Assembly: GCA_018436855.1 (NCBI GenBank)
Contig: JAHDKO010000016.1
Span: 7,286 to 71,285, forward strand
Reading direction: 5' to 3'
Source: Deltaproteobacteria bacterium
GTDB taxonomy: Bacteria; Desulfobacterota; Desulfomonilia; UBA1062
Length of the DNA stretch: 64,000 nt
The position numbers were made by a program, and so were the translations under genes. Shown one piece after another: positions 1-32,243 of the stretch. Each line of letters begins with the position of its first letter. Position 1 is the stretch's first letter. Below the pieces are notes generated by a model. The model was not told where the DNA came from, made no database searches, and saw only the letters and a list, made by a program, of their open reading frames with translations.

Positions 1-2281
1 CGCTTTTCCAATTAATGCACCCGAACCCCTTGCCGTTTTCGACAACCTCCCCTCCGCAGCCAGGGCAATATCCAACAACTTCCCCCTGATCTTTAGATCC
101 GCGATCACCACGATTTTCGTCAGAATTATCATTGAAAACAAATATCACTTTCCCGTCATTTTTCGGGTCTACCTTCAACCTTGCAGAAAATGGTTTTCCC
201 TTCACAGACATGAAATTCATCAGGTCGGATTCCTCGCCCTTGAGCAGTTTTTTTACAACAGCAATAGGTATTTTCGTCCCTGCAATGCTTTTCCAGACAA
301 CCATCCCACAGCCCTCTTTCCACCTGGAACAGCCATACCCTTTTTTCCCCTCAAAGATATCGCTCCCGCACAATGGACATTTTCCGACCGATTTTCTGGC
401 CTGCTTCTGTTTATCATCTCTTGGCTGCTTATTGCCTCCCATCTTGTTTTCTCCAGAAAAACTTATAGATTTAGAAGAGGGCATACTTTTAAGCTCCTTG
501 GTAATATGTTCCACAAACCGCTCTATTCCTTCCAGAAACTTTTTTGTGATATTCTCACCCTTGGAAATACGATCCAGGATCATTTCCCAACGAGCAGTCT
601 CAGTGGGGGAAGTCAATGTTGCGGCCACGGTTGATTTTCTCAGGGTATCTATGAGCTTGCATCCTTTGGGTGTGGCAATGATGGCCTTCTTGTCTCTTAT
701 CGCATATTCTCTTGCTAGAATAGTCTCAATAATTCCAGCTCTTGTAGCCTGCGTTCCCAACCCGCAAGCATTGCCCCTGAACACCTTCTTGTACTCATCC
801 TCGTCAACATATTTACCAGGATTCGCCATGTCTTTCAGAAGCAATGCCTCGGTATAATGTGGCGGTGGCGTTGTCATCTTCTTTATATTCTCGGCCTTGA
901 CTACCTGGGCGGGATCGTCCTTCGCCAAGGGAGGAAGAACAACATCCTGCTGGTCCTTTGCACCACCATAGACTGCTCTCCATCCAGGTATGAGAATAAT
1001 CCTTCCCCTGGTAATGAATTTTTCACCTTGGACTTCGGTCACAACCTCGGTCGATTCATACTTGCAGGCAGGATAAAAGGCGGCTGCAAACCGCTCCAAA
1101 ACAAGCTGAAATAGCTTCTCTTCGTCCTTGCTTGCGTTTGATGGAATCGGAGCCAGTGGTGTAAGTGCAGGATGATCGGTCAGCTTCGCATTATTAAAAA
1201 CTCGTTTATTTTTCAATGAAATCAGGCTATGATCAATTCCCCCGAAGAGCGAAGGATATATTGGCTGGAGGTCCTGAACGATCCTTTTCACCATGCCCAC
1301 GTTGCTTTCCCCCATGACCTGACTGTCTGTTCTCGGGTAGCTCAACACCTTGTGCGTATCATAAAGCTCCTGGGCAACATCAAGAGTATGCTGCGCTGAG
1401 AACCCGTATTTTACGTTAGCAGCTCTCTGTAGCTCTGTCAGGGAAAACAACAGAGGCGGGGCCTGCTCTCCCTTTTCCTTCTTGACAGACAGCACAACGC
1501 CCGTTTTGCCCTGGATTTTATTCAGAGCAGCAACAGCGTCGTTCTCCGAGATGAATTTTTCCTGATCATCACTGAACCAATGCCCTTCCCAGGTTCCCTT
1601 TGGATTCTCGAAAACCGCCTGCAAGATCCAGTATGGTTCGGCCTTGAAACCATCCCTTTCCCTGAGCCGATCAACCAGAAGAGCCACACATGCAGTTTGC
1701 ACTCTCCCCACGGAAAAAAACTCGCCCATTTTAAGCGTCATTGCTCTGGTTATATTCATGCCGATGAGCCAATCGGACACCTGTCTCGCACCTCCTGCGG
1801 CCCATAATCTATCATATTCGCTGGCTGGCTTGAGATTATTCATTCCGTCCTGGATGACTTTAGGAGTGAGGGCCTGCGAAGACCAAAAACGATAAACAGG
1901 TCCCTTATACTTGCCTTGTCCCAAAATTGTTCTAAAAATTACCTCCCCTTCCCTTCCCGCGTCCGTTGCCTCAATCACGGACGAAACATCCTTTCTTGCA
2001 AGAAGGGTTAAAATAACTTTGAGCTGATCCTTGACATTTTCAATTGGTTTCCTACGGTATTTTTCAGGGATCATAGGAAGAACATCGAGCTTCCAGGGTT
2101 TGCCCCATTGATCGTTATAGTCTCCCGGCTCATAAAGCTCGACAAGATGACCGACTGCCCAAGTAATAATATATGAACCATTCTCGATATATCCCTGGTT
2201 TTTCGTGGACGAGCTTGCTCCCAGGCCCTTGGCAAAATCAAAGGCCACCGATGGTTTCTCTGTGATTATCAATGCTTTCAT
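1..2281 (-). CDS. topB: DNA topoisomerase III (type IA), N-terminal ~760 aa; C-terminus continues beyond window start
   Basis: Manual reverse-strand translation from ATG at 2281-2279 gives MKALIITEKPSVAFDFAKGLG. This is the Toprim ITEKPSVA motif, followed by GREGE, the LSYPRTDS catalytic-Tyr motif and C-terminal Cys4 zinc ribbons (CPLCG...CSRW). The ORF track omits it only because it is unbounded at the window edge. Confidence 0.8.
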   Translation of the reverse strand, partial: MKALIITEKPSVAFDFAKGLGASSSTKNQGYIENGSYIITWAVGHLVELYEPGDYNDQWGKPWKLDVLPMIPEKYRRKPIENVKDQLKVILTLLARKDVSSVIEATDAGREGEVIFRTILGQGKYKGPVYRFWSSQALTPKVIQDGMNNLKPASEYDRLWAAGGARQVSDWLIGMNITRAMTLKMGEFFSVGRVQTACVALLVDRLRERDGFKAEPYWILQAVFENPKGTWEGHWFSDDQEKFISENDAVAALNKIQGKTGVVLSVKKEKGEQAPPLLFSLTELQRAANVKYGFSAQHTLDVAQELYDTHKVLSYPRTDSQVMGESNVGMVKRIVQDLQPIYPSLFGGIDHSLISLKNKRVFNNAKLTDHPALTPLAPIPSNASKDEEKLFQLVLERFAAAFYPACKYESTEVVTEVQGEKFITRGRIILIPGWRAVYGGAKDQQDVVLPPLAKDDPAQVVKAENIKKMTTPPPHYTEALLLKDMANPGKYVDEDEYKKVFRGNACGLGTQATRAGIIETILAREYAIRDKKAIIATPKGCKLIDTLRKSTVAATLTSPTETARWEMILDRISKGENITKKFLEGIERFVEHITKELKSMPSSKSISFSGENKMGGNKQPRDDKQKQARKSVGKCPLCGSDIFEGKKGYGCSRWKEGCGMVVWKSIAGTKIPIAVVKKLLKGEESDLMNFMSVKGKPFSARLKVDPKNDGKVIFVFNDNSDENRGDRGSKDQGEVVGYCPGCGGEVVENGKGFGCINWKS

Positions 2282-2293
2282 TGAATACCAAGT

Positions 2294-2875
2294 TTACACA
2301 GCCAGCCCTAAGCGACTCTGTGCCGCTACTGTGTCCTGGATGGATCGCGTTACCTCAAGTTTGGCCCAGGCAAGACGATTCTCTGCCCCAATCCTTGCAA
2401 CCGGCATGTCCCAATCTCGCAGAATGCCCCAGATCAGGCGATCAATCTCATACTGATACCACTTTCTCGGGGATCGAACGCCATCATCCTCGATGGGGAT
2501 TTCCCCCCACGGAAGAAACAGAATCAAGTCATATGTATCCTGAGCATGTTCCTTGGCTGTGCGAATAAAATCATCCAGCATGATATCTGAGAATTCTCTT
2601 GCACACCACCGGAGTACATAGGCCACATTATCTGCCACAGAACGATCCGCAACAAAGGAGCCCACACCGTTCTCCTGCTCGATCTTTTTATACAAAATGC
2701 ACCACTGCATTTTCATGTATTCCCCTGGTGACATTTCCCGCAAATTATCGATGCCGTGCTCTTTTATGTATGACCTCACCCCTTCCTCAACCCGAGGTAT
2801 TCCGAACTCCTGTTCCAAACCTCTCGACAAGATGCTTTTCCCGGTTCCTTCAGACCCACTAATGGCGATTCGCAT
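2294..2875 (-). CDS. P-loop NTPase, NadR/AAA_28-like (nucleoside kinase-like)
   Basis: Walker A is MRIAISGSEGTGKS, and a downstream FVADRSVADNVAY motif is present. The long ORF extends to 3028, but starting at the internal Met (2875) avoids a 170-nt out-of-frame overlap with the upstream Zn-ribbon gene. Confidence 0.5.
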   Translation of the reverse strand: MRIAISGSEGTGKSILSRGLEQEFGIPRVEEGVRSYIKEHGIDNLREMSPGEYMKMQWCILYKKIEQENGVGSFVADRSVADNVAYVLRWCAREFSDIMLDDFIRTAKEHAQDTYDLILFLPWGEIPIEDDGVRSPRKWYQYEIDRLIWGILRDWDMPVARIGAENRLAWAKLEVTRSIQDTVAAQSRLGLAV

Positions 2876-3074
2876 TCTTCTTCCTCCACTCTCTGAAAAT
2901 TTTTCTTTGAATATCTGCTGTCTGCTCGATGGTTGCAGACTCAAGTCCACAAGAGGGACACATAGAAATTTGCGACTGATACGACACCCTGACTCCCCGG
3001 AAAACCAATGAATCCTTTTTATTGACAAGCTGCATACTCGTTTTACATTCCGGGCATATTAACTGCTTGATCAT
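2859..3074 (-). CDS. YgiT-type zinc-ribbon protein
   Basis: CPECK...17aa...CPSCG arrangement in a 71-aa protein, consistent with the YgiT/MqsA-type zinc finger. Confidence 0.45.
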   Translation of the reverse strand: MIKQLICPECKTSMQLVNKKDSLVFRGVRVSYQSQISMCPSCGLESATIEQTADIQRKIFREWRKKNANRH

Positions 3075-3672
3075 AGCCTACCTCGTTTTTCCTGATCCAC
3101 TTCTTGATGAGTTTCTTCGACTGTCTTTTGTATACCTCGGCAATGGCATCCTCACGCGATTCAAAAAGGTTTTCTTGCCGATCCATCCCGTACATCTCAA
3201 GTAACCTGAGTTCAACCACTACAGTATCAGTAAGCCCCCCTTGAGCCTCTATATGAAGCATAGGAACACTTCTCCTGAGATATCTCCCGATCAGGATTGC
3301 CCGATGGCAATTCTGTGGTTCCTTCTCCGCGCACAAGAGACAACACCTATACATCTCCATTCCCTTTTTTACCCGGCCAATGCTTCCCCGGAATGCTTTT
3401 GATTGTGCGATAAGCTCCCAATCAGGTGTTCCATTTCTAAAAAAGTTTTCATTTGAAGGATGTACCCCCAGATCAGGCATTGGCACATAAAGAATTCCAG
3501 CGTCCTTGAGTTTTTTTCTTAAAACGTCCTGGTTATAATCAGGATACCGCGAAGAAAAGGGCTTGCTTCTCACATCAATTATGGAATTTATTTTGAAAAA
3601 CTTGAGAGGTTCCAAAAATTCCTCAAAGGAATCAAAAGCAGCATACCCTATGGTGTAAAGATTTCCGCTCAT
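3043..3672 (-). CDS. DUF488-family protein with C-terminal extension
   Basis: N-terminal LYTIGYAAF...DVR pattern typical of DUF488. Operonic with the neighbouring genes. Confidence 0.4.
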   Translation of the reverse strand: MSGNLYTIGYAAFDSFEEFLEPLKFFKINSIIDVRSKPFSSRYPDYNQDVLRKKLKDAGILYVPMPDLGVHPSNENFFRNGTPDWELIAQSKAFRGSIGRVKKGMEMYRCCLLCAEKEPQNCHRAILIGRYLRRSVPMLHIEAQGGLTDTVVVELRLLEMYGMDRQENLFESREDAIAEVYKRQSKKLIKKWIRKNEVGYDQAVNMPGM

Positions 3673-4190
3673 TTACCGCCCCCCTGTGACATCTCAGCTA
3701 TTTTAAGGGCAAGCGTCGCAACCTGGATTGATTCTTTGAATATATCCTCACGAGTGCCATTGCGATAAACAAACTCAGAAATAGCCTCGGCTACCTCTCC
3801 AACTTCCTCGGAAAGATATGTTTCCCACTCAAAAGGTGACCGCTCCTGAACACCCCATTTCTGGATCTGCCTTTCGTTTTCCCGAAATATATGATCAACA
3901 AGAAATGAAATCGATTTAAGTTTCTGATCTTTCCATATCGGCGGGATAAAACGAGACTGCCAAACATCAAAGGGAGCCGTACATCCACAGTCAAGACAAC
4001 GACACCAATACTCATTATCTCCACCATCCATGCATATCCGTGAACCATTCTCCTTTAGCGTTTTAGCAGTTGCCCGATAAATATCCCTCGCCAAATTTTT
4101 TGCTTCATCGACCGACATCCCATGCTCAACATTACCAAGAGATACAAATATATGATCTTCGCTATCAGCCCATGCTTTTTTCTTCTCCAT
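3669..4190 (-). CDS. Cys-rich N-terminal domain fused to a MazG-like nucleotide pyrophosphohydrolase domain
   Basis: The C-terminal QKWGVQERSPFEWETYLSEEVGEVAEAI resembles the MazG EExxE motif region. The N-terminal CMDGGDNEYWCRCLDCGC is a Cys cluster. RBS GGAGG precedes the ATG at 4190. Confidence 0.4.
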   Translation of the reverse strand: MEKKKAWADSEDHIFVSLGNVEHGMSVDEAKNLARDIYRATAKTLKENGSRICMDGGDNEYWCRCLDCGCTAPFDVWQSRFIPPIWKDQKLKSISFLVDHIFRENERQIQKWGVQERSPFEWETYLSEEVGEVAEAISEFVYRNGTREDIFKESIQVATLALKIAEMSQGGGK

Positions 4191-4212
4191 TACTCAACCT
4201 CCATTTATTCAT

Positions 4213-4256
4213 TATTATCTACATAACATAGATAGGCCATTTTGTCAAGTATTATT
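4213..4256 (-). promoter_or_regulatory. Sigma70-type promoter (family B): AATAATAC-TTGACA-N17-TATGTT
   Basis: On the minus strand: aggaaataatacTTGACAaaatggcctatctatgtTATGTA, about 25 nt upstream of the RBS/ATG of gene 3669..4190. Confidence 0.45.
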
Positions 4257-4300
4257 TCCTGTTGAATAAGTTTATGAGAAACTATCCAAGTATGCATACA

Positions 4301-4343
4301 GGTATTATTCTTTGAGCAGGAAATAAATTGAGCACAAAAAAAG
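4301..4343 (-). promoter_or_regulatory. Conserved element A, copy 1 (candidate activator-dependent promoter)
   Basis: +strand ggtattattctttgagcaggaaataaattgagcacaaaaaaag. Matches the consensus GTATTATTCTTTGAGnGGGAAATAAAACGnCnnCAAAAAAAA seen at 9 other loci. Confidence 0.5.
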
Positions 4344-4376
4344 AGCCAGTTCCCTTTTCAGGAAACCAGCTCTTTT
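4336..4376 (-). terminator. Candidate rho-independent terminator after gene 4390..4605
   Basis: Imperfect 13-bp stem (agagccagttccc / ggaaaccagctct) followed by a T-run on the minus strand. Confidence 0.35.
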
Positions 4377-4389
4377 GGTCTATAACTTT

Positions 4390-4605
4390 TTAATACATCA
4401 ACGGCATGAATAATCCATCTCCTCCTTTGAAAGTAAACCCTATCGGGCCAAGTCTTTCTCCAGGATAGAGTTTTAGATCACCAAAAACCGTCGCAAGGCG
4501 AAGTATAAGCGATGCATCAATATAGCCATCGTTCTTCCAGGGGTACTTGCACCGTTCGCTGTCTGGGTTACAGAATGGGGCCAATATTTCAGCCAATGTC
4601 TTCAT
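4390..4605 (-). CDS. hypothetical protein (71 aa)
   Basis: ORF with good coding-like composition in a same-strand array. No recognisable motif. Confidence 0.35.
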   Translation of the reverse strand: MKTLAEILAPFCNPDSERCKYPWKNDGYIDASLILRLATVFGDLKLYPGERLGPIGFTFKGGDGLFMPLMY

Positions 4606-4617
4606 AGTACACTCCTT

Positions 4618-5028
4618 TCATTCCCAATCGGTGCCTTTGGGCAGACCTTCGATATAGGGAGCATCACTATCGAACTTGATCCAGAAGCATCCCAGACAAT
4701 ATGCGAGTTTCATACAGTTGATAAAATTTTTGCTCAGTCTGATCTTGACAGCAACCCGGATACTTTCGTCATAATAATCTGGATCATCCGGTACATGAAT
4801 CCATGCTCCATGATCATGTAATATCCACATTAACAGACCCCATTCCCCATGATCAAAATGCGCTGAATTGCAAGTAAGCGAATTCGCCCTAAACGCATCT
4901 TTGTCAGTCAGATCGTTGAGGATATTGAAATCTTCCTTCATGGCATGACCTGTAGAAAGATCCAGATAGTTTCTCACGTTCTCTTTCTTCGCTGCCTTCG
5001 TTATTGTTTCCCATGAAATCTTTTCCAT
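4618..5028 (-). CDS. hypothetical protein
   Basis: Start chosen at Met (MEKISWETI) preceded by GGGAGA RBS. The long ORF extends to 5163. Confidence 0.4.
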   Translation of the reverse strand: MEKISWETITKAAKKENVRNYLDLSTGHAMKEDFNILNDLTDKDAFRANSLTCNSAHFDHGEWGLLMWILHDHGAWIHVPDDPDYYDESIRVAVKIRLSKNFINCMKLAYCLGCFWIKFDSDAPYIEGLPKGTDWE

Positions 5029-5165
5029 AATTTTCTCCCTGTTAAAAAACGGAGGGGGAGAAGGTGACCCCCCCGTCCTGGTGTTTGTGCAAAACAAGGT
5101 GACAACAACAGACGTTTGTGTAAAGTGATAAACCAATTTCTTTACACAAACGCTTGCCACCATAC

Positions 5166-7532
5166 TTACGCAGCCTTCAGCTCATAGAGAACAAACTGTT
5201 TTTTTCCCGGAACCTCGATCAGTCGGATTGGCTTTCCATTAAGCTCCCCATGTTTCTTGTCGTATGACCCCACCTTTTTCTTGCGATAGTAGATATCACC
5301 CTTAAAAAAGATGAACTCATGCTTTCCGTCAACATGGGCAACTCCGATAAACTCGCCACCAATGGTTCTCTGGGCATATACCATTCCTCTGACTACTTGC
5401 TGATATTGAACAGAAGCGGTATGATCGCCTTTTGTATAGGTGGTGGTTACTGTTTCAGTGGTTTCGGGATCATTAAGGTATGAGTCAGATTCAACTTCCT
5501 GCTTCTTATATCTGTTCCATACCTCCTGCAAAGAGGATTTGTTCTCATGCCGGTTACCCAACAATTCCCTGGCAAGAGCAAAGAGCATGCTGCTTTCGCT
5601 GTTTGCTATTGCCGCCAGTCCCTTATCGCTCAGATCGCCTTCAACAGCCATGGCCGTTTCGAGCTTGCTTGCAATGAGCGTAAGAGCCTTTTCCTGCACG
5701 GTTTCAGCGTATGACAGGTAATAAACTCTCACATCTTTATTCTGGCCTATTCTCCAGCTACGCCGGGATGTTTGACGCAGAGTATAGATGGAATACCCTG
5801 TCTGGAAAAACAAGATTGTGGGGAATTCGTAAAGATCGAGTCCTGTCTGAACCAAACGGGGATTTGTAATAAGCCCGTCATACTCACCAGTTGCGATCTT
5901 TTCTTTAACCCACGCTTCACGTTTTTCCGTGCTCACCGTGTTTGATCTGAGAACGAGTAACCTGATACCTTCTCTTTCGAATTTTTCCACGATTTCAGGT
6001 ATCAGATCCCTTGTACCTGTATGCTCCAAACACACCAGACATTTCCGGCCTTCAGCCAATTCCTGTTTTGCCAGCTCAATGATCTTTTCCTCTTTGGGCA
6101 AAACATCGATGTCTAATGCAGGAGCCTCGGCAATAACCTCATTCACACCATTGTCGTTCATGAGAGTGATCAACTCAGGTTTTCGGCATCCGTCAGGATA
6201 AGCCAGAAGGGAATTGATCATTTTGCCCAAAAGCCGCTTATCACCACGAGCCAAGGCTTCTTTAACCGCATTTGTCAGGGTTTCCTCGAAATCTTTGTAC
6301 TCAATCTTCTGGATCTCATCCATCGACACCGGAACGATAATTTCATCATAAGGTGGCAATGATTTTGAAACATCAGAAAGTCGTACAAACACACTGTTTT
6401 CGAGAAGCATGTCAGTTAATATCAGTGGGCTTATTCCGGGTTTCTCTCTGGAGCTTACCAGCTTCCGGTTTGTCCCACCAATACTTGCGACATTGTGTTT
6501 CCCGTCCTCGACATAAACATGTTCAAGAATTCCATACAGCTTTGCGAACTGCATGGTCTTCCCGTACTTCAAACCCTTGGCATTCATCTTTTGCGGATTG
6601 AGTCTCCACATGATGTAGTACAGGTTTGTGCTGTACCCTCCGAGCAAAGTACCGGTTAATGCAAGTGTACGTTTGCACGAAGAAGCAAGATCAGCGAAAG
6701 CCTGACCCTGGCCTGTACCGCCGCCTTTCAACTCATGAACTTCATCAGCCAGAAACAGATCAAACGCGCCTTTCAGATATCGTTTGATATATTCAGCTTT
6801 TGCGTAACGCCTGAATCGACCTCCAGGCTGATACAATGGCTCACCACACAGTACAGTGGTTCCGTCATCGTTGGTCCGAATTTCATTGATGCATTTTGTC
6901 TTTTTGTTCTTTCGAACACTCTCGATTAAATCAGGATCAATCTCTCTGCCACACCGAGGGCAATATCCGTTATGAGCAATATGTTTTTGCTCATAGAGAG
7001 CCTTGCTTTTACCCTGGCACGATATTACACCCTCGATCTGGTAATGCAGCTTTGCCCTCTCTTTCCCGATAACCCACACTTCCATGTTCTTGGGTTTGGT
7101 GCGGTTTTTTCGGAGATTTACAAGCTCTGCCATAGATTTTCCGTTAAGATTGATAACAGTGCATCCAGGTATGGTTTCCTCTGCTTCCCTGATCCATTTC
7201 TGAACCAGATGACCAGGACACATAACCAGGACGCGCTTGGCATCGAGCAAGTAGGCTACTGCTAAAGCCATGATAGTTTTGCCGGTTCCCATCTCGCCAC
7301 AAAGGGTTTCCCCTCTTGCAACCTGAAAACCTTTTGTCACAGCTAAAACGGCATCCTCCTGGGCGGGAAAGAGCTTGCGCTTGAGATTATCCAACCGACT
7401 AGCCCTTTTAATATCCAAAACATCTCGGTTCTTAGGATCGTACAAGGGCTTCAACTCACTCTTGACACGATCTTTTAATTCTTCCGAGAACTCGGATAGA
7501 AAATCCTTTAATGAAATAGTATCCGTTGACAT
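5166..7532 (-). CDS. SNF2-family helicase (DEAH-box) with zinc ribbon
   Basis: Walker A GEMGTGKT, DEAH box LFLADEVHELKG, CPRCG zinc ribbon and a C-terminal helicase domain. Start at ATG 7532 preceded by GGAGG. Confidence 0.8.
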   Translation of the reverse strand: MSTDTISLKDFLSEFSEELKDRVKSELKPLYDPKNRDVLDIKRASRLDNLKRKLFPAQEDAVLAVTKGFQVARGETLCGEMGTGKTIMALAVAYLLDAKRVLVMCPGHLVQKWIREAEETIPGCTVINLNGKSMAELVNLRKNRTKPKNMEVWVIGKERAKLHYQIEGVISCQGKSKALYEQKHIAHNGYCPRCGREIDPDLIESVRKNKKTKCINEIRTNDDGTTVLCGEPLYQPGGRFRRYAKAEYIKRYLKGAFDLFLADEVHELKGGGTGQGQAFADLASSCKRTLALTGTLLGGYSTNLYYIMWRLNPQKMNAKGLKYGKTMQFAKLYGILEHVYVEDGKHNVASIGGTNRKLVSSREKPGISPLILTDMLLENSVFVRLSDVSKSLPPYDEIIVPVSMDEIQKIEYKDFEETLTNAVKEALARGDKRLLGKMINSLLAYPDGCRKPELITLMNDNGVNEVIAEAPALDIDVLPKEEKIIELAKQELAEGRKCLVCLEHTGTRDLIPEIVEKFEREGIRLLVLRSNTVSTEKREAWVKEKIATGEYDGLITNPRLVQTGLDLYEFPTILFFQTGYSIYTLRQTSRRSWRIGQNKDVRVYYLSYAETVQEKALTLIASKLETAMAVEGDLSDKGLAAIANSESSMLFALARELLGNRHENKSSLQEVWNRYKKQEVESDSYLNDPETTETVTTTYTKGDHTASVQYQQVVRGMVYAQRTIGGEFIGVAHVDGKHEFIFFKGDIYYRKKKVGSYDKKHGELNGKPIRLIEVPGKKQFVLYELKAA

Positions 7533-7671
7533 GTTTCCTCCGAAGTTTGCCCACAAGACAACTATCCCCGCAGGGAAAAAGTTGTTCCCTGTAGGAATAA
7601 TGTTTGTTTGGAATAATTGAAAGGGAGTGTGCTACGAACTACATATTATGAAGAGTTGCCTTTTTATGACT

Positions 7672-8229
7672 TTATTTCCATAACTCTTCCTGAACGATCT
7701 GTGTAAGAATAAAGCCTTCCAACTGCGCTTCGTCAGGTGTTTGCATTACACAACCCTTCACGCCTTCGCCCAGGCCGATGCAACGAACCGTTTCTCCTTT
7801 TTCGGCCCATAGCCATCTGAAGATCATTTCTGACCATTCCTGTTTGAGTGGGGTGGATACGGTGGCATCCAGCCATTTATGAAACTGATCGAGAATATTT
7901 TCATCGGATGTACCGTACAAGATCCGGGATTCATTCGATTCCCCGAATAAATCCTTATTATACAAAATCCGGTGAAGTCCGTTCTCGATTCTCTTGCTGA
8001 TTACCCGGTAATTGCCGTAACTTGTTCTTGTCATAAAACAGGATGCTTCCTCGTGTTCCAGATCGATTTCCTGGTTCTGAAGAAACATTGCCGTCAAAGC
8101 AAGAACATCGCCCTCTCTACCGAATACGGACAGGAAATAGCACTCTGGCCTATATCCATGTTTTGATAGGATAACTTTATCGCAATAGCAGCGAATTCCA
8201 TTACCCATCACTGATATAACTCCATACAT
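7672..8229 (-). CDS. hypothetical protein (185 aa)
   Basis: ORF between the methyltransferase and the helicase. No recognisable motif. Confidence 0.4.
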   Translation of the reverse strand: MYGVISVMGNGIRCYCDKVILSKHGYRPECYFLSVFGREGDVLALTAMFLQNQEIDLEHEEASCFMTRTSYGNYRVISKRIENGLHRILYNKDLFGESNESRILYGTSDENILDQFHKWLDATVSTPLKQEWSEMIFRWLWAEKGETVRCIGLGEGVKGCVMQTPDEAQLEGFILTQIVQEELWK

Positions 8230-8239: not shown

Positions 8240-9313
8240 CTATTTTATATCGATGAAGCTCTGGGTTTGGTAATCCAAAGCCCGGACAATGATTTCGAAC
8301 CGTTCAATGACGGTGATTTTTGTTTTTTCGTCACCATCATCAGCTTCGGTATCCTCATACCCGGTTTCTTCCTGGTATTTTCTGACCGATCCTTTGATGA
8401 GAAATTTTCGATCACCCTTACCGACCATTCCATTCATCATGCCGCTTGCCATCAACATAGCCATGTGACCGTTTCGCAAAGGGGTAAGCGGCTGAAGTGA
8501 TGACATGGTTTGAATCTTGGTTTCCAGTAGGAATGAGTCCGTAAGCCCATCATTCTGAACCTGAACATAAGCCTTATCAGGATCAAAACGGGTGCTTCTG
8601 AACATGAAAGTTTTCTCGTTTCGGTCGATTACCGGCACCGGGTATGAACAGCGATAAAACTCTTCGCTATTCACTTGTGGAATATGAACCTGAACGTCTT
8701 CCACAGGAACCGATGTTACAGCGTCCCAGAAATCTTTGTTGCTTTTGTAAACCTTTTCCGGGAACGGCCCAGTTGGCCTTTGTCCCATGATCACTACCTG
8801 TTTGAACCGATCAAATTCTTCACCAGGAAAGGCGAAGATTGCAGGGTTTTCCAGGCGCATGATCAGGAACTTTTTCACCTTTTTCACTGTGCTCCAGGGA
8901 ATGATATAGATGAGAACTCCTTTTGGCGCGAGGTACGTGAAATGTTGGTGTAAAAAACGGGCTTCTACTCGGATTTTGTTATCATCAACATCTCCTGTCT
9001 CATCGTCATAGGGAGGGTTCAGAAGCAGGGCTCCGAAAGCTGCACGAGAAATGTGTGTTTCGAAAATACTATCGCATTTCAGTACAGCATCGAGCCTCCC
9101 ATCTGCTACATCAGCCCGATTCTCATCAAGCTCAATCCCGTATGTGGAACACTCTTCGTAACCATCTGCGAGAAGGGACAATGGTTCACCATCCCCGCAG
9201 CATGTATCAAGATATCTGGTTTTCCCCTGAATCACTAGAATCTTCCTGAGTGCTTCAATCACGCACAAAGGAGTAGGGTAAAACCCCATTTTTGCTTGTC
9301 CTGCCAATCTCAT
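8240..9313 (-). CDS. N6-adenine (or N4-cytosine) DNA methyltransferase, orphan
   Basis: Motif I LDTCCGDGEPL and motif IV LLNPPYD. FYPTP near the N-terminus. Start ATG 9313 preceded by AAGGAG. No adjacent restriction endonuclease. Confidence 0.75.
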   Translation of the reverse strand: MRLAGQAKMGFYPTPLCVIEALRKILVIQGKTRYLDTCCGDGEPLSLLADGYEECSTYGIELDENRADVADGRLDAVLKCDSIFETHISRAAFGALLLNPPYDDETGDVDDNKIRVEARFLHQHFTYLAPKGVLIYIIPWSTVKKVKKFLIMRLENPAIFAFPGEEFDRFKQVVIMGQRPTGPFPEKVYKSNKDFWDAVTSVPVEDVQVHIPQVNSEEFYRCSYPVPVIDRNEKTFMFRSTRFDPDKAYVQVQNDGLTDSFLLETKIQTMSSLQPLTPLRNGHMAMLMASGMMNGMVGKGDRKFLIKGSVRKYQEETGYEDTEADDGDEKTKITVIERFEIIVRALDYQTQSFIDIK

Positions 9314-9356
9314 GTCAATCTCCTTTGGTTGGTTTATTTTTATCCTGGACCACGGC

Positions 9357-9674
9357 CTATGAGATCCTTTTGACAGCCGTGATATGTGAGAAGGAAATAC
9401 ATCTCGGACTTGTTGCCTCGAAACTGCCCGGTTTTTGGGTAATTTCAAAATCATCAGGCAGCAAGATATCGAGTATGATCAACTCATCTTCTTCAAGCTC
9501 ATCCAGCAACCAATTCATCAATGCGTCATGAACAGCTTCGGGAGAAGTGAACAGGTAAATTGCATCCTGTATTTCACCCGCTGCTCTACTCCGCTTTCCT
9601 TTTTGGGGAATAAGTCCTTGGTGCCGGATATTCTTGAGATATTTATCTGTGGTCACATGATAATATGTCTTCAT
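9357..9674 (-). CDS. hypothetical protein (105 aa)
   Basis: Start MKTYYHVTTDKYLKNIRHQGLIP preceded by GAGGAA RBS. Faint resemblance to ART-like or DarT-like N-termini, not confirmed. Confidence 0.35.
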   Translation of the reverse strand: MKTYYHVTTDKYLKNIRHQGLIPQKGKRSRAAGEIQDAIYLFTSPEAVHDALMNWLLDELEEDELIILDILLPDDFEITQKPGSFEATSPRCISFSHITAVKRIS

Positions 9675-11295: not shown

Positions 11296-12063
11296 GTGAA
11301 TGTTAAGAGGGTAATATTTAGTGTTTGCTTGTTTCTGGCGTTTGGTTTTTCGGGCGTACATGCCGGTAATCCCGGCTTGCCGGTCTATGAGGATGTTCTA
11401 TTCAACAAGTTGGATCAGATCGTTCATCATACGGCCTACTCGCTTCAATACAAGGAAGACTGTGAACAAGCTGCCTGGGTTGCGTACAAGATCGAGTATG
11501 ATAAGCTGATTCATTCGATCAAACGCTCAGATAATTTTCGGGTAGACCCCAAGGTAATAACGAAGTCTGCCACACTAGCAGATTATCGGGGTTCCGGGTA
11601 TGATCGAGGTCATCTTGCCCCGGCTGCATCCATGAAATACTCGAAAATCACCATGAGCGAGTCGTTCTATATGTCGAACATGAGCCCACAGCATCCAGGC
11701 TTAAACCGGGGTATCTGGAAAAAACTTGAGGATAAGGTAAGGCGATGGTCAAACAAACATGGTGATCTGTATGTTGTGAGCGGTCCCGTATTAAGGGGCC
11801 AGCCGAACAAGGATACCAAGTTCATTGGACCGAACAATGTTTGTGTGCCGGAATACTATTACAAAGTGATCCTGGATTATAATGAACCCGAGATAAAGGC
11901 CATCGGCTTTTTCTTTCCCAATGTTCCCTGTGTTGACGATCTTGAACAATTCGCCCTATCTGTTGCTAGTATTGAGGTCATAACCGGCATTGATTTTTTC
12001 TCCGGGCTCCCGGATCATATCGAGGATGTAATTGAGAACGAGTGCAACTATCATGCTTGGTGA
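11296..12063 (+). CDS. Secreted DNA/RNA non-specific endonuclease (His-Me finger, NUC1/EndoG-like)
   Basis: N-terminal signal peptide and the SGYDRGHLAPAASM active-site motif (DRGH). GTG start after GGGTGGGAAG. Confidence 0.8.
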   Translation: MNVKRVIFSVCLFLAFGFSGVHAGNPGLPVYEDVLFNKLDQIVHHTAYSLQYKEDCEQAAWVAYKIEYDKLIHSIKRSDNFRVDPKVITKSATLADYRGSGYDRGHLAPAASMKYSKITMSESFYMSNMSPQHPGLNRGIWKKLEDKVRRWSNKHGDLYVVSGPVLRGQPNKDTKFIGPNNVCVPEYYYKVILDYNEPEIKAIGFFFPNVPCVDDLEQFALSVASIEVITGIDFFSGLPDHIEDVIENECNYHAW

Positions 12064-12075
12064 AAGGGTTAAACC

Positions 12076-12300
12076 ATGACGAACTTTTTGCTCAAAGACG
12101 TAGACGATTCCTTTTGGACCACGGTTAAGAAGAAGACGCAGCAAGAGGATATCCATTTGAAGCACTTGATCCTTGAGCTTCTTCGCCTTTGGCTCAAGGG
12201 GGATATCCGGGTTGACACAAAGAAGCTCAGGAAGATCCACGAAGAGGTTAAATCGAAGGGGTATGCACAGAGAACCAGAAGGGGGCAAGACGAACCTTGA
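12076..12300 (+). CDS. small protein, possible ribbon-helix-helix
   Basis: 74 aa with an N-terminal beta-strand-like segment followed by helices. Sits between the nuclease and VRR-NUC genes. Confidence 0.35.
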   Translation: MTNFLLKDVDDSFWTTVKKKTQQEDIHLKHLILELLRLWLKGDIRVDTKKLRKIHEEVKSKGYAQRTRRGQDEP

Positions 12301-12659
12301 TTATTCCCGAGGCAGATGTTCAAAAACAAATACTTGATTATCTTGCATGGAGACATGTCTTTGTTTGGCGGCAAAATTCCGGTGCTGTCGTATACGAGGA
12401 CGAAAACAGGAATAAGCGGTTCGTCCGGTTCGCTTCCGTCAACGGGATCTCCGACATTCTGGGAATACTGCCCGATGGAAGACTGCTGGCTATCGAGGTT
12501 AAAAAAAAAGGCAAAAAACCATCCGATGATCAAGAGAAATTTTTGGCTGCAATTAAAAGAAACAATGGTGTAGCAATTCTGGCATACTCGCTTGATGATG
12601 TAATCAAAGAACTAGACTGTGTTTCTTTTTCCCAAAAACATATTGCACGACCTTCTTGA
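12297..12659 (+). CDS. VRR-NUC domain protein (PD-(D/E)xK nuclease)
   Basis: QKQILDYL...RQNSG...GISDILGILPDGRLLAIEVKKKGKKPSDDQEKFLAAIKRNNGVAIL matches the VRR-NUC signature (D..E.K and Q..F). Confidence 0.75.
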   Translation: MIIPEADVQKQILDYLAWRHVFVWRQNSGAVVYEDENRNKRFVRFASVNGISDILGILPDGRLLAIEVKKKGKKPSDDQEKFLAAIKRNNGVAILAYSLDDVIKELDCVSFSQKHIARPS

Positions 12660-12913
12660 TAGGAGTTTCTTATATGAGTCAAAGAAATATTGCCCCTGTT
12701 CTGAATCAACTTTTGTCAGACGAACTTTCCGACAAACCTGAATGGCGCATAGATGCCGTTGACTTGGCAAAAAAGATTCCTGATATCGACTACAAATTTC
12801 CTTCGCACATCATTCCCTTGGTCAAGGCCGCAGTAAAGAAAGCCAACCGGGAATCGGGCATGAGAAAACAAAACTTGAGTCGCTATTTGATAAATTTGTG
12901 GACCAGGAAGTGA
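12656..12913 (+). CDS. hypothetical protein
   Basis: ORF overlapping the upstream stop by 4 nt. Confidence 0.3.
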   Translation: MIGVSYMSQRNIAPVLNQLLSDELSDKPEWRIDAVDLAKKIPDIDYKFPSHIIPLVKAAVKKANRESGMRKQNLSRYLINLWTRK

Positions 12914-13047
12914 TGGAGCCCACTTTTTATTAACAATAAACGTTCGTTTTTTGCTCATGGCAACAAGATACATAAACGGGTTGTTTATTTTAATCAAAAC
13001 CATTAAGAATAACTCGATTATGACGATTATATAAAGAGAGGATCAAG

Positions 13048-13662: not shown

Positions 13663-13803
13663 TTGATTTCTCGCTCGACGAATATTTATAGTTGACATAC
13701 ATGCATGACATGTATTACATGTGTTGCATGTATTATTCATACTGTTATTATCTTACTAGTGCATCAAGAATGAGGAAGAGAGACAGTAAGGAGGAATTGT
13801 CAA

Positions 13804-14503: not shown

Positions 14504-15049
14504 TTAACTTCCCGGTCCCGATCCCATTCCCCGATCCGGGCAAATCTCGTCATCCGAACCCTTATCTATCTCTTTGAATTTATCGATACCATCAAGGTCG
14601 AGTTCGCATTTTCTGCCGGCATACTCGCCTTTCATGATCGCATAGATATCTTCCCTTAGATCGTTGGGACTCAGAACACCCTTGAAAACCACTTCGATTC
14701 CGGCGCTTCCCGCTGATCCAAACTCGACATCTCCGGTTCCGAGCATGCGCTGAAGGATCGACTGCTTGACATTGACGCTTCTCAGATCGGCTATTCGAAT
14801 CGTGCTGGTGCTCTTGCTCAAAATTCCCTGGGTGCTTTGAATAAAATCATTCGTTACCAGATAGTGCCACATGCAACGCTGAAGAGCTATTGCCGCCCCA
14901 AGAATGACAAACAACCCGGCAACGTACTTGAATGCTACCGAGGTGTATATCAAAAGCAGAATGCAAACCACGATCAGCCCGATGATTCCCAATGACTGCT
15001 CTCTCCATGCCGGTCTGTCCTCAAAAACAACTTTATTTCCATCTCTCAT
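14504..15049 (-). CDS. Membrane protein with bacterial PH domain (bPH_2/YdbS-like)
   Basis: Two TM helices followed by a YLVTNDFIQSTQGIL...IRIADLRSVNVKQSILQRMLGTGDV pattern. Confidence 0.5.
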   Translation of the reverse strand: MRDGNKVVFEDRPAWREQSLGIIGLIVVCILLLIYTSVAFKYVAGLFVILGAAIALQRCMWHYLVTNDFIQSTQGILSKSTSTIRIADLRSVNVKQSILQRMLGTGDVEFGSAGSAGIEVVFKGVLSPNDLREDIYAIMKGEYAGRKCELDLDGIDKFKEIDKGSDDEICPDRGMGSGPGS

Positions 15050-15114: not shown

Positions 15115-15846
15115 TTAGAAATTCCCGACTATCGTCTTGGAAATCTGCGCCTCAAGCACTGGCCGTGCTTCTTCGAAATCGAGATTCACCTTGTTTGCGG
15201 ACGCGAGAACCCTTAAATTGTATCTCATGAAGTCGCTCTTGGACGTTGCGGTCTGCTTGACCTGTGTCGATGTTCCCTGCTTGATGTCGCTCTCCACGGT
15301 CTGTTCTATAGCAACATCCGACCTCTCGGAAATTTGCAGATCAATCATCATGGAGTAGGTAACATTTTTCACAAGCGAGTCCGCGACAAATCCAGCTCCC
15401 GCACCTATTGCGCCCCCGATCCCTATGCCGGAAACACGCTGATTTATCAAACCGCCTATCGCCGCTCCAGCAACCAACCCCTCCATTGGAGCACCGTACC
15501 CGGCATTCACGACTTTCTGGAGCATTGCGGGATCGTCCTCTCCTATATAAAGAATTTTGACCTGGAGAACGTAATAGCTATCCCTTGGGGATGCCGTGAT
15601 CTCATACCCTTTGCTGATCAGCTCCTTTTCGATCAAGTCCTTGATCTGAAAATTGTGCTGCGTTGTATTTCGGACATCCACGAAAGCGGTTCTCTCGAAA
15701 TCGCCCATGATATTCAGAAAAATATTACCCTCCGTTTTTACATCAACATCGAGGTTCCTGTGCTCGATTGCCGTTCTGGTTGCCGAACATCCGCTCAGGA
15801 CAAATACCGCCAAAATAATTCCCAAAAACACGATCTTTCTATTCAT
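15115..15846 (-). CDS. traT: TraT-like outer-membrane lipoprotein (surface/entry exclusion, complement resistance)
   Basis: 243 aa with lipobox LSGC and a Gly-zipper segment. C-terminal ...ANKVNLDFEEARPVLEAQISK is highly similar to F-plasmid TraT as I recall it. Confidence 0.7.
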   Translation of the reverse strand: MNRKIVFLGIILAVFVLSGCSATRTAIEHRNLDVDVKTEGNIFLNIMGDFERTAFVDVRNTTQHNFQIKDLIEKELISKGYEITASPRDSYYVLQVKILYIGEDDPAMLQKVVNAGYGAPMEGLVAGAAIGGLINQRVSGIGIGGAIGAGAGFVADSLVKNVTYSMMIDLQISERSDVAIEQTVESDIKQGTSTQVKQTATSKSDFMRYNLRVLASANKVNLDFEEARPVLEAQISKTIVGNF

Positions 15847-15861: not shown

Positions 15862-17019
15862 TTAACTCAGTCGTTTACCCAAAACTTCCTGGATAGCCCT
15901 TGACAGCTCTATCATCGCATACGGCTTTTGGAGCACCTTTTTCACGCCGAGCTTGTGTAATTTTCCCCTGGTAACCAGATTGCTGTAGCCGGTGCATAAG
16001 ATTATTGGGAAATCAGGTCTTTTTTGCAGAACCTTCACCGTGAGTTCTTCGCCGTCCATCTCGGGCATATTGATATCAGAGATCATGATGTCGAACCTGT
16101 CAGGCGTTTCCATGAAGAGGTTCAGGGCTTCCTTCCCGTTTGAGGCAACAGCTACTTCGTATCCATCCCGCTTCAGAACCTCCTTGGCGAGAAATGATAC
16201 ATTCTGCTCATCGTCCACAAAAAGAACCGTATGCCCGGTTGGTCTATGTTCCTGCACATTCTTGATTAACAAGTTTTTCTTTTGTTCTTGCTGTCTATCT
16301 CCCTCTTCACACATAGGGAGATAGACGGTGAACGTGGAGCCCTTTCCCTCATTGCTTTTACAGGTAATAAATCCCTTGTGAATCTTTACGATCTCGTCAA
16401 CGATCGCAAGCCCCAGGCCGTTTCCGTCTTCTTTTGTCGTAAAGTGCGGTTCAAAGATCCTGTCAACCAGCTTATCGGGAATGCCTATTCCTGTGTCGGA
16501 TATGGACATAATCATATAATTTTGCGGTGGCATGTTCCCTGTATCCAAGACCGTGTTCTTAACCTCGATCCCGATCTTTCCCCCTCCCGGCATGGCCTGG
16601 ATGGCATTAGTGCAGAGATTCATGAAAAGGCGATTCATCTGGCCTATACTGGTCATAATGTCGCCCGTTATATTGAGATTGCATTCAATGATAATATCTC
16701 TGGGTACGAATGCACGAACCATCTCAATGAATGTTCGCATGACAGGCTCAATAGTCACCCGCTCAAAGTTGGCATCCCCGTCTTCTTTCAGGGTAAATAT
16801 CTGCTGAATAAGGGTTCTCGCCTGTTCTGCAGCGTTTGCAGCATTACCAAGGCTGGCTTCCACCTCTCCAGGATTATCCAGGTGAGCCTTCGCCAGCTCG
16901 ATACAGTTTATCACTACGGTAAGAATATTATTAACATCATGCGCCACACCTCTCGTTCTGGTTCCGGGTTTCTGGTTTGTTCTCCCGTAAGAAAAACTTT
17001 CCTGTTGCTGAGTGATCAC
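15862..17019 (-). CDS. Hybrid histidine kinase (HisKA-HATPase-REC), no sensor domain
   Basis: H-box HDVNNILTVV, HATPase G-boxes (DTGIGIP, GLGL) and a C-terminal receiver VLFVDDEQNV...DINMPEMDG. Confidence 0.8.
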   Translation of the reverse strand: MITQQQESFSYGRTNQKPGTRTRGVAHDVNNILTVVINCIELAKAHLDNPGEVEASLGNAANAAEQARTLIQQIFTLKEDGDANFERVTIEPVMRTFIEMVRAFVPRDIIIECNLNITGDIMTSIGQMNRLFMNLCTNAIQAMPGGGKIGIEVKNTVLDTGNMPPQNYMIMSISDTGIGIPDKLVDRIFEPHFTTKEDGNGLGLAIVDEIVKIHKGFITCKSNEGKGSTFTVYLPMCEEGDRQQEQKKNLLIKNVQEHRPTGHTVLFVDDEQNVSFLAKEVLKRDGYEVAVASNGKEALNLFMETPDRFDIMISDINMPEMDGEELTVKVLQKRPDFPIILCTGYSNLVTRGKLHKLGVKKVLQKPYAMIELSRAIQEVLGKRLS

Positions 17020-17040: not shown

Positions 17041-17634
17041 TTAACAAAGTTCTTTAAAGGCTTTACCGGAAGCCACCAGCTTGGTTCTTTCCCCTAAATG
17101 CCAGAGTATTTCGTCTACCTGATCCTCGATTTTTCGTGATCGGATCACATAGACCTTTTCCCTATATCTCTCAAGAATTTCGGATAACTCTCCGAAAGAG
17201 GCTATCTGCTCATTGCTCTCATTCCCATCCAGCAACATGAACGCGATCACATCATATATTTTCTCTGCATGGTGGAGCGCATACTTGGAAAATCGGGCTA
17301 CATCATTTTTAAGAGATGATTTTTGAGCGGGTTTTTTTGGGTTAATTTCGCAGGAGCATCTTGCTACAATTTCAATAGCACTCTCAATTGTGGTTCCATC
17401 TGCCACAAAATAAGGCAAGTTTGTTTCTTTCCAAATTTTATCGAAAAGAATATCCTCCTTCATCCGAAAAAACATATTTATCGGCATCTTGCCAGGGCAT
17501 ACATCCTTGAAAAAGTTTGATCGAATCCACTCATCTGCGCGATTTTCCAGAAACGGACACACCAGTTCCTCGCTCAACCTTCTTGCTAATTCCATTCTGG
17601 TTTTCAGCTCAACTCCACAAATAGCGATCCTCAC
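17041..17634 (-). CDS. Degenerate P-loop paralog of the 2294..2875 NTPase (Walker A lost)
   Basis: MRIAICGVELKTRM aligns with MRIAISGSEGTGKS. YFVADGTTIESAI aligns with FVADRSVADNVAY. GTG start with AGAGGGGGA RBS. Confidence 0.45.
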   Translation of the reverse strand: MRIAICGVELKTRMELARRLSEELVCPFLENRADEWIRSNFFKDVCPGKMPINMFFRMKEDILFDKIWKETNLPYFVADGTTIESAIEIVARCSCEINPKKPAQKSSLKNDVARFSKYALHHAEKIYDVIAFMLLDGNESNEQIASFGELSEILERYREKVYVIRSRKIEDQVDEILWHLGERTKLVASGKAFKELC

Positions 17635-17670: not shown

Positions 17671-17714
17671 GGTATTATTCTTTGAGGGGGAAATAAAACG
17701 CCGGGAAAAAAAAT
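17671..17714 (-). promoter_or_regulatory. Conserved element A, copy 2
   Basis: ggtattattctttgagggggaaataaaacgccgggaaaaaaaat, 36 nt upstream of the GTG of 17041..17634. Confidence 0.5.
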
Positions 17715-27713: not shown

Positions 27714-27759
27714 GGGTATTATTCTTTGAGCGGGAAATAAAACGCCCTCAAAAAAAATA
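27714..27759 (-). promoter_or_regulatory. Conserved element A, copy 3 (abuts the trbC start codon, leaderless geometry)
   Basis: gggtattattctttgagcgggaaataaaacgccctcaaaaaaaat. In gene orientation AATAAT-N6-ATG. Confidence 0.5.
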
Positions 27760-32195: not shown

Positions 32196-32199
32196 ACAT

Positions 32200-32243
32200 G
32201 TATTATTCTTTGGGCGGGAAATAAAACGGGAACAAAAAAAATG
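32200..32243 (-). promoter_or_regulatory. Conserved element A, copy 4 (5 nt from the start codon)
   Basis: tgtattattctttgggcgggaaataaaacgggaacaaaaaaaatg. Confidence 0.5.

Follow-up and report, generated by a model that had tools for sequence, protein, structure and literature searches.

The 64,000-nucleotide (nt) stretch analysed here, hereafter the window, comes from contig JAHDKO010000016.1 of a Deltaproteobacteria bacterium, and all coordinates are positions within it. Close to its left end, four head-to-tail overlapping open reading frames (ORFs) on the minus strand, g1 to g4 (4190..2294), lie directly ahead of topB, the gene of topoisomerase III. They encode a MazG-like chimera, a DUF488 protein, a zinc ribbon and a predicted P-loop kinase, respectively. 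Comparison with related loci demonstrates that they form a mosaic of separately swappable pieces, not a fixed four-part system, and that DUF488 is the only gene stably linked to topB in this element family. The genes are as follows:

4190..3669, minus strand: g1, 173 amino acids (aa)
3672..3043, minus strand: g2, 209 aa, overlapping g1 by 4 nt
3074..2859, minus strand: g3, 71 aa, overlapping g2 by 32 nt
2875..2294, minus strand: g4, 193 aa, MRIAISGSEGTGKS, overlapping g3 by 17 nt
1..2282, minus strand: topB (topoisomerase III), with Toprim, Topoisom_bac and Toprim_Crpt matches, running off the window

Each of g1 to g4 is preceded by a GGAGG-like Shine-Dalgarno site, and these sites together with the ORF coordinates bear out the four overlapping genes described in an earlier note on this DNA. 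The end of the operon, which that note placed at 2294, lies further on, since the terminator scan found no terminator between g4 and topB and topB begins 11 nt past the g4 stop. Judged by gene spacing, the transcription unit probably comprises seven genes, g1-g2-g3-g4-topB-parB-like-YAcAr; in an identical 6.6-kb contig (L001; related loci carry L numbers throughout), a TopB of 811 aa is followed by a ParB-like gene, a YAcAr gene and then convergent genes. The true start of g4 is ATG 2875 rather than TTG 3028, at which the mechanically called ORF of 244 aa opens, because all homologues begin with MRIAISG and a GGAGGA precedes ATG 2875. A terminator-like hairpin at 3777-3798 (minus strand), within the MazG-like part of g1, has a stem of only 9 pairs (3 G-C) with a poor T tract behind it, and is probably a chance match. 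Additionally, a search of positions 2000-5000 against Rfam found no RNA family, and the 2-kb locus had no megablast match in PLSDB.

The mosaic nature of the locus is clearest from its relatives. Specifically, L003 and L009 carry a 90-aa first gene, different from g1, which is followed by DUF488, zinc-ribbon, AAA_28 and TopB genes; L006-L008 carry an ASCH-like first gene, DUF488 and TopB, with neither zinc ribbon nor kinase; and in L010 a DUF488 gene (encoding a protein 35% identical to g2) is followed by three unrelated genes and then TopB. DNA homology between the window and L006 extends over 3682-3097 and 2280-159, with the breaks at 3097 and 2280 placed such that g3-g4 are skipped exactly, and across the related elements g3 and g4 are jointly present or absent. 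This locus comparison identifies the first gene as a variable slot, the DUF488-to-topB arrangement as the stable core, and g3 plus g4 as one insertion/deletion unit. The four genes had been taken for one integrated module, a view not supported by the finding that relatives carry DUF488 with or without the zinc-ribbon and kinase genes and behind other first genes. Because the first gene and g3-g4 vary among the related elements, the MazG-like protein and the kinase are likewise not a conserved pair here.

The constant member, g2, matches Pfam DUF488 (PF04343) with 71.6 bits against a cut-off of 22.2 (E 1.1e-19). The search with hidden Markov models (HMMs) thus upholds the proposed DUF488 assignment, while the MazG assignment made alongside it is only half supported, as described below. 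DUF488 is a widespread family with, to our knowledge, no known function; a literature search on DUF488, PDC-M45 and DuOB found no functional study, and one apparent paper on a DUF488 SGNH hydrolase really concerns DUF4886. The protein also matches PDC-M45B (PDLC04657), the PADLOC profile for the B component of a candidate defence system, over its full length (E 3.8e-45, profile positions 4-189 of 204). In g2 we find every one of the 15 columns that are invariant in an alignment of 35 sequences, the invariant residues including D33, R35, S36, C114, E116, C122-H123-R124 and H140. The AlphaFold2 (AF2) model of g2 has a predicted local distance difference test (pLDDT) value of 86.8. Foldseek searches of PDB and BFVD gave nothing below E 0.001 for the g1 or the g2 model; for g2, Cys-phosphatase folds (DUF442, protein tyrosine phosphatase, dual-specificity phosphatase) recur at E 0.003-0.2, the range also seen with a bona fide phage DUF488, and this modelled likeness is a lead rather than a result. 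A PDB sequence search with g2 gave nothing significant.

With a 9-sequence subset of the alignment we found 80 genomic loci (L016-L095) of this DUF488 subtype, with 31-42% identity; a scan of genome contigs with the single g2 protein found nothing. A short second DUF488 (PDC-M45C, 1.9e-66) lies directly downstream in 58 of the 80 loci. A DuOB/RecQ gene is present in 49, its N-terminus corresponding to PDC-M45A, that is, Pfam DuOB (dual OB fold), and in many cases the gene continues into a complete RecQ helicase (DEAD, Helicase_C, RecQ_Zn_bind and HRDC domains). PDC-M45 thereby resolves into a DuOB protein (often RecQ-fused), then a long DUF488, then a short DUF488. On the Allochromatium tepidum plasmid pAt1 (L107), this trio lies within a type III CRISPR accessory island with csm6, csx16 and cas1. 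TopB, AAA_28, MazG-like, zinc-ribbon, ParB-like, YAcAr and SNF2 genes occur in none of the 80 loci, and a general linkage of DUF488 with TopB was dropped on the TopB count.

These loci bear directly on the idea that the operon is anti-phage defence cargo, a reduced or variant PDC-M45 built around its DUF488. Besides the match of g2 to PDC-M45B, the idea can draw on the canonical M45 loci in defence islands, such as that of pAt1, and on the frequency with which mobile elements carry defence genes. The remaining components are nevertheless absent from the window: M45A has no match among the eight proteins around the operon, tblastn of the DuOB-RecQ protein against the whole window was empty, and g2 is the only DUF488 in the window, so that neither DuOB, alone or with RecQ, nor a short DUF488 is present. 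Within this element family the partner of DUF488 is topB, not a helicase; PDC-M45 has no more than candidate status, and PADLOC matches none of the other three genes. Taken together, we consider a defence function of this kind decidedly unlikely. A different inference can be made from the neighbours themselves. RecQ and topoisomerase III are established partners on single-stranded DNA (ssDNA) intermediates. Because the same DUF488 subtype adjoins RecQ elsewhere and topoisomerase III here, we infer that g2-type DUF488 proteins may work on DNA or ssDNA-linked substrates.

In the variable slot, g1 is composed of the following parts, all on the minus strand:

4041-4190: N-terminal module, aa 1-50
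3939-4046: degenerate Lar-like Cys cluster, aa 49-84, with cysteines 53, 63, 65, 68 and 70
3669-3935: MazG-like domain, aa 86-173, with motifs E128-E129-x-x-E132 and E153-x-x-Q156

Among 5.8 billion protein clusters this architecture was seen in identical sequence only, and three separate stretches of g1 DNA match three different sources with 70-74% identity. Residues 1-50 resemble the first gene of the related elements, which has neither the Cys cluster nor the MazG-like domain. Residues 49-84 share 78-84% identity with the N-terminal ends of proteins from phage contexts, whose own matches to Lar_restr_allev (PF14354) are weak, the best of them at E 2.5e-5 and still below the cut-off. In g1 the first CxxC knuckle is replaced (LKENGS instead of CPICKG), and neither the whole protein nor its N-terminal 87 aa matches the Lar_restr_allev HMM. 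The Lar-like relatives and the MazG-like relatives of g1 are each found in phage early regions, and MazG-like relatives occur also in T5-like and jumbo phages.

The C-terminal part, aa 86-173, falls in a family of ~97-aa stand-alone proteins that bear the Joint Genome Institute (JGI) name 'NTP pyrophosphatase (non-canonical NTP hydrolase)', NTP being nucleoside triphosphate. Against Pfam MazG (PF03819), g1 scores 14.7 bits (E 0.037), below the cut-off of 22, and stand-alone homologues score 14.5-15.2 bits. A PDB sequence search with g1 found nothing significant; a profile of 65 family members gave five PDB matches, all MazG-like (5ie9, 1vmg, 2gta, 2q73 and 2q5z, E 0.03-0.9). The AF2 model of g1 shows three confident helices, with pLDDT above 95 for residues 94-171 and about 50 for the Lar-like segment, and its best Foldseek matches are DCTPP1/RS21-C6 and MazG, which at E 0.5-2.4 are not significant. 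Across the family EExGE is invariant, the second motif reads E..Q with the Q nearly invariant, and ENxxQxxKWGVQ forms an extra invariant motif. For the fusion of a Cys cluster with a MazG-like domain predicted earlier, family, profile and helices lean towards MazG, with profile and fold matches short of significance and the MazG HMM below threshold, and from these comparisons we would place g1 with MazG at the level of the superfamily only.

The kinase gene of the optional unit, g4, matches AAA_28 over its full length with 59 bits against a cut-off of 27 (E 8.7e-16), in keeping with the previous call of a P-loop kinase-like NTPase from the motif GSEGTGKS. Its motifs are Walker A (G7SEGTGKS14), D77 and a lid (D131-G-x-R134), and both Walker A and lid are invariant among close homologues. 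Such homologues are very rare, with six in a search of 5.8 billion clusters, and scans of metagenome and viral sequences with the g4 alignment yielded one fragment and one viral contig only.

With regard to function, one possible role is NAD+ salvage as counter-defence, in which g4 would be a nicotinamide-riboside kinase that rebuilds NAD+ after the action of TIR, SIR2 or short Argonaute NADases. In curated families and in PDB alike, g4 indeed matches NadR kinase domains best, and with these it has FxADR and DDGxR in common, and one homologue is labelled nicotinamide riboside kinase by its source. The similarity is weak, however: 2.7e-6 to the NadR kinase region, 26.8 bits against the 341 required for TIGR01526, 14.7 against 201 for PRK08099, and E 0.14 for the PDB matches. 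Moreover, NADases release nicotinamide and ADP-ribose and not nicotinamide riboside, the operon has no nicotinamide mononucleotide (NMN) adenylyltransferase or Nampt-like gene, and the phage context of g4 relatives suggests thymidylate metabolism, which together leave NAD+ salvage very improbable.

That context is as follows. The protein matches phrog_2107, 'thymidylate kinase', at 2e-14. On the viral contig a 41%-identical relative lies directly after ThyX (Thy1, 6e-35). In ~400 SSU5-like phage-plasmids, ~30%-identical relatives follow NrdAB-ThyA-DHFR, and in Aeromonas phage-plasmids the relative additionally follows an NTP pyrophosphohydrolase; hhalign of g4 with the Aeromonas phage-plasmid protein gave 98.4% probability of homology. 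Because its relatives adjoin ThyX or ThyA-DHFR, the contexts point to a nucleoside or (deoxy)nucleoside monophosphate ((d)NMP) kinase rather than specifically a nicotinamide-riboside kinase. The SSU5-like proteins carry the generic annotation 'AAA family ATPase' (~400 PLSDB records, among them E. coli LF82 NC_011917 and Aeromonas jandaei CP053880); standing at the end of the NrdAB-ThyA-DHFR module, they probably act as nucleotide kinases. We also tried to equate the MazG-like part of g1 with the NTP pyrophosphohydrolase beside the Aeromonas kinase and rejected this, as hhalign shows no relationship and the adjacency is analogous, not orthologous.

The same phage modules would fit a plainer account, in which the genes are nucleotide-metabolism helpers that have no role in conflict, with the MazG-like domain sanitizing deoxynucleoside triphosphates and the kinase phosphorylating (d)NMPs. 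Embedding of g4 relatives in Nrd-ThyA-DHFR or ThyX modules agrees with this account, as do the phrog_2107 match and the status of MazG-family proteins as classic house-cleaning enzymes (PMC10014863). The operon itself, on the other hand, has no thymidylate synthase, reductase or polymerase; the MazG-like domain and the kinase are not co-conserved in related elements; the neighbouring SNF2 helicase, methyltransferase, ParB-like and YAcAr genes are typical of conflict or establishment regions; and DUF488 and the zinc ribbon would be left unexplained. On balance we judge this account unlikely.

The small partner of the kinase, g3, has its cysteines arranged as C7-x2-C10 ... C39-x2-C42. It matches TIGR03830 (MqsA) at E 1.2e-6 over model positions 1-63 of 127, with 28.3 bits against a cut-off of 61.8, and ends at residue 71 with no helix-turn-helix (HTH). 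Many generic zinc-ribbon Pfam matches are all below cut-off, a PDB search returned generic zinc ribbons only and no MqsA match, BLASTP with a hand-entered E. coli MqsA sequence gave no alignment, and tblastn of g3 against plasmids found nothing. The label of YgiT-type zinc ribbon given in the earlier note is thus supported below threshold by the N-terminal half of the MqsA model, and the HTH is missing.

One could read g3-g4 as a toxin-antitoxin or addiction pair that stabilizes the element, the kinase being a toxin that hits an essential metabolite as zeta/PezT do and the zinc ribbon its antitoxin. The arrangement is suggestive, in that the smaller gene precedes the larger with an overlap of 17 nt, g3 matches the toxin-binding half of MqsA, and both genes are gained or lost together. 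Yet g3 has no HTH, no separate promoter for the pair lies within the operon, AAA_28 kinases are not among the known toxin families, and there is no PADLOC match. The closest g4 relatives have no zinc-ribbon partner and reside in phage nucleotide-synthesis modules (ThyX, ThyA-DHFR), and g3 has no pairwise similarity to the hand-entered E. coli MqsA. The setting had been described as typical of counter-defence or toxin-antitoxin-like modules; the toxin-antitoxin part can apply to g3-g4 only, where it is weakened because an antitoxin HTH, an own promoter and a known toxin family are all missing, and we regard it as quite unlikely. The counter-defence part is compatible with the conjugative element, the neighbouring genes and a phage precedent, Atd1, discussed below.

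A paralog of g4 with a destroyed P-loop lies elsewhere in the window, at the head of its own operon:

17671-17696, minus strand: a copy of the repeated Element A, followed at 17667-17650 by a mini-ORF of 5 codons (MNAKF and stop), directly upstream of the paralog's Shine-Dalgarno site and GTG
17041..17634, minus strand: paralog of g4, 197 aa, GTG start
17019..15862, minus strand: hybrid histidine kinase/receiver
15846..15115, minus strand: TraT
15049..14504, minus strand: bPH_2 protein

As had been proposed, the two NTPases align beyond chance (BLASTP, 27% identity over 136 aa, E 4e-12), GSEGTGKS of g4 being GVELKTRM in the paralog, and the operon content and the copy at 17671-17696 confirm that the paralog heads a histidine-kinase/traT operon behind Element A. 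The paralog has no AAA_28 match. A full HMMER search of 1.84 billion representatives found six relatives only. Three of them, P0178, P0179 and P0181 (51, 49 and 26% identity by phmmer), align over the full length, lack both GxxxxGK[ST] and the LPWG..DDGVRS lid, and share a conserved C-terminal EDQVDEILW motif; P0180 (137 aa) matches the C-terminal half only; and P0182 and P0183, which are more distant, retain both motifs as well as an AAA_28 match. Because full-length relatives have lost the same Walker A and lid, the paralog is a conserved pseudo-kinase and not a decaying copy. A regulatory or decoy role, as suggested before, would be consistent with such a family, and the protein would most likely serve the neighbouring hybrid histidine kinase operon as a subunit that binds a ligand or acts as an adaptor. 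Additionally, metagenome contig ERZ795052 NODE-49514 (L102, 1944 bp) contains, within 1.4 kb, three fragments: one 71% identical to aa 29-83 of the dead paralog, one 82% identical to aa 99-154 of g4, and the C-terminal part of TopB. The arrangement suggests that the locus has been rearranged or has decayed there, or that paralog and g4 have formed a hybrid.

Upstream of g1, and in the case of Element A also elsewhere in the window, the following signals were observed:

4339..4376, minus strand: intrinsic terminator from the terminator scan, a 17-pair stem with a T-run, ending the upstream 71-aa gene 4605..4390
4301..4326, minus strand: copy of Element A, TTATTTCCTGCTCAAAGAATAATACC, a repeated element at operon heads
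4205..4297, minus strand: putative upstream ORF (uORF) of 30 codons, MHTWIVSHKLIQQEIILDKMAYLCYVDNNE, beginning exactly 3 nt past Element A
4220..4248, minus strand: sigma70-like promoter, with -35 TTGACA (4248-4243), a 17-nt spacer, -10 at 4225-4220 and an extended -10 TGtTATGTA at 4228-4220
17671-17696, 27715-27740, 32199-32224, 41377-41402 and 43477-43502, minus strand: further copies of Element A
46107-46132 and 61652-61677, plus strand: further copies of Element A

Element A, which the earlier note had placed upstream of the operon, is confirmed there by the copy at 4301-4326 and occurs 8 times in the window against 0 expected. It is part of a longer conserved block, CATTTTTTTTGAGGCCGTTTTATTTCCCGCTCAAAGAATAATACC, whose extended consensus has a T8 run and GAGGCCG, and its core is a weak inverted repeat, TTATTTC...GAATAA. 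In 5 copies an ATG lies exactly 3 nt past the element. Three of these ATGs (27711, 41373 and about 32195) open real long ORFs that have no Shine-Dalgarno site, and those at 4297 and 17667 open a short uORF only. The pattern would suit a promoter of leaderless or near-leaderless mRNAs, or a duplicated promoter-plus-start cassette. Two related elements, L003 and L006, have no copy of Element A, which is therefore not conserved across this operon family.

The sigma70 promoter proposed earlier fares less evenly. A consensus promoter scan gave 2 sites against 5.2 in shuffled sequence, which is not above chance, and did not list the 4248-4220 site, whose final -10 base is A and not T. TTGACA-17-TGtTATGTA with identical spacing, however, also precedes the equivalent gene in L003, where Element A is absent. 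Because motif and spacing are kept in L003, the 4248-4220 site is the likelier core promoter on this sequence evidence.

The window also encodes an F-type type IV secretion system (T4SS; TraG_N, TraH, TraF, TrbC, TraU, TraN, TraC, TraB/TrbI), together with a coupling protein, an HD-domain protein and a ParM-like actin. The host of the locus is an F-type (TraU/TraN/TraC/TraG) conjugative element, probably of MOBH type. At 58831-61634 (plus strand), the gene of the TraD/TraG-type coupling protein overlaps that of the HD-domain protein (488 aa), a possible MOBH-type relaxase, and Element A follows at 61652. The element represents a new lineage, because its TraU is at most 41% identical to that of any PLSDB plasmid. 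TopB homologues are common on conjugative plasmids. Upstream of the operon lie the following genes:

4618-5163, minus strand: DUF5983 protein
5166-7556, minus strand: SNF2-family helicase, with phrog_62 as best PHROG match and also resembling DpdE and ZorD
7672-8229, minus strand: 185-aa protein with no Pfam or PADLOC family match
8240-9454, minus strand: DUF6094 methyltransferase

Such a block is typical of anti-restriction or establishment regions. Further along, a region of reversed GC skew at ~11300-13700 (plus strand) encodes an Endonuclease_NS nuclease, a VRR_NUC protein and a serine resolvase; the DUF488 operon of L006 likewise has an Endonuclease_NS gene next to it, and the nuclease may be a regular companion of these elements. 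Within the T4SS cluster, the minus-strand ORFs 32322-34517 (731 aa) and 28764-29420 (218 aa) have no Pfam match at E 1e-4.

From this anatomy we interpret the locus, with about as much confidence as doubt, as mosaic cargo of independent nucleotide- or DNA-directed enzymes that heads the topB operon and serves establishment or counter-defence. It would constitute the variable front end of a longer topB operon in a previously unsampled conjugative element, made of three units: a first-gene slot, here filled by a one-off chimera of N-terminal module, Lar-like fragment and phage-type MazG-like domain; a constant DUF488 of the PDC-M45B subtype with a predicted intact active site; and an optional insert, in which an MqsA-N-like zinc ribbon appears translationally coupled to a NadR-kinase-like kinase. 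In the proposed mechanism, g1 to g4 would be expressed with TopB during transfer or replication of the element, each acting separately. DUF488 would act on an ssDNA, DNA-linked or nucleotide phosphate substrate alongside topoisomerase III, and the MazG-like domain would remove an unwanted nucleotide by hydrolysis, for instance a non-canonical NTP, an alarmone or one that derives from a defence system. The kinase would phosphorylate a nucleoside or (d)NMP, and the zinc ribbon would be bound to this enzyme as a partner or would regulate it. Overall, the nucleotide pool and the DNA intermediates would be adjusted in a way that lets the element become established in spite of host defences. A precedent exists in the phage MazG-like protein Atd1, an anti-defence protein that protects against TIR-STING toxicity by depleting (p)ppGpp (doi 10.1101/2022.06.09.495361).

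Several points weigh against this interpretation. The functions of all four proteins are sequence-based predictions. The MazG and MqsA-like assignments lie below curated thresholds, the Foldseek matches of the g1 and g2 models are not significant, and the Lar-like segment of g1 lacks the first CxxC and is modelled with low confidence. The family-wide E..Q in place of the second metal motif E..D suggests that catalysis may differ. With TopB in 0 of the 80 genomic loci, the DUF488-TopB link comes from a few related metagenomic elements and L010, and co-transcription of g1 to topB is deduced from gene spacing alone. Finally, the likeness to establishment regions is one of gene content.

A bolder version, conceivable though doubtful, would make PDC-M45B DUF488 proteins ssDNA-transaction enzymes working with RecQ or topoisomerase III, one of which was captured at the head of topB together with swappable, phage-derived anti-defence pieces to form a new establishment or counter-defence unit protecting incoming ssDNA and the nucleotide pool. 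Such a unit might even antagonize the DuOB-RecQ-DUF488 system. The DUF488 'B' subtype is listed only within a candidate defence system, and its occurrence beside RecQ in defence islands and beside topoisomerase III in conjugative elements provides a testable hypothesis, namely that DUF488 acts on ssDNA intermediates. The locus also shows a conjugative element assembling accessory genes from phage-type parts (MazG-like, Lar-like and a thymidylate-module kinase), and offers a natural, predicted pair of active kinase and pseudo-kinase within one element. Should these genes indeed counter host immunity, the anti-defence repertoire of plasmids would gain new families; otherwise the locus would be an ordinary cluster of mosaic cargo belonging to a novel lineage of plasmids.

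The locus can finally be set against known systems. Like establishment and anti-defence regions of conjugative plasmids (PMC11541004), it places small accessory genes beside SNF2, methyltransferase, ParB-like and topoisomerase genes. That study (Samuel et al. 2024) makes no mention of MazG, pyrophosphohydrolases, topoisomerase, SNF2 or NAD, ParB occurs in it only in citations of the R1 hok/sok locus, and DUF488 and AAA_28 were not searched there. With single-domain MazG-like proteins (Atd1, DCTPP1/RS21-C6, YpjD and SSO3215), g1 has in common a helical domain of ~90 aa with EExGE, a family profile that matches MazG-like PDB entries only (E 0.03-0.9), and relatives that are phage early genes; it differs in its score below the Pfam threshold, in E..Q instead of E..D, in the extra ENxxQxxKWGVQ, and in the fusion of the domain to an N-terminal module and a degenerate Lar-like Cys cluster. 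As for Lar proteins, residues 49-84 of g1 are close (78-84% identity) to phage proteins that match Lar_restr_allev at 2.5e-5, whereas g1 itself has neither the first CxxC knuckle nor a Lar HMM match, and the segment is modelled at low confidence. The layout of g3, CxxC ... FRG ... CxxC, is that of the toxin-binding N-terminal half of TIGR03830, and as with MqsA (YgiT) its gene stands upstream of and overlaps that of a putative partner. Unlike MqsA, g3 has no C-terminal HTH and scores below the cut-off, and its neighbours are DUF488 and a P-loop kinase instead of an MqsR-like toxin. The kinase g4 carries the Walker A, FxADR and DDGxR lid of the NadR kinase domain and AAA_28; it differs from NadR as a stand-alone protein of 193 aa without NMN adenylyltransferase or HTH, far below the equivalog cut-off and with a zinc-ribbon partner. 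Compared with PDC-M45, the A and C components are absent from the window and g2 is fixed upstream of topB among unrelated partners, whereas g2 itself matches the B component over its full length, including the C-terminal helical extension and the invariant residues.

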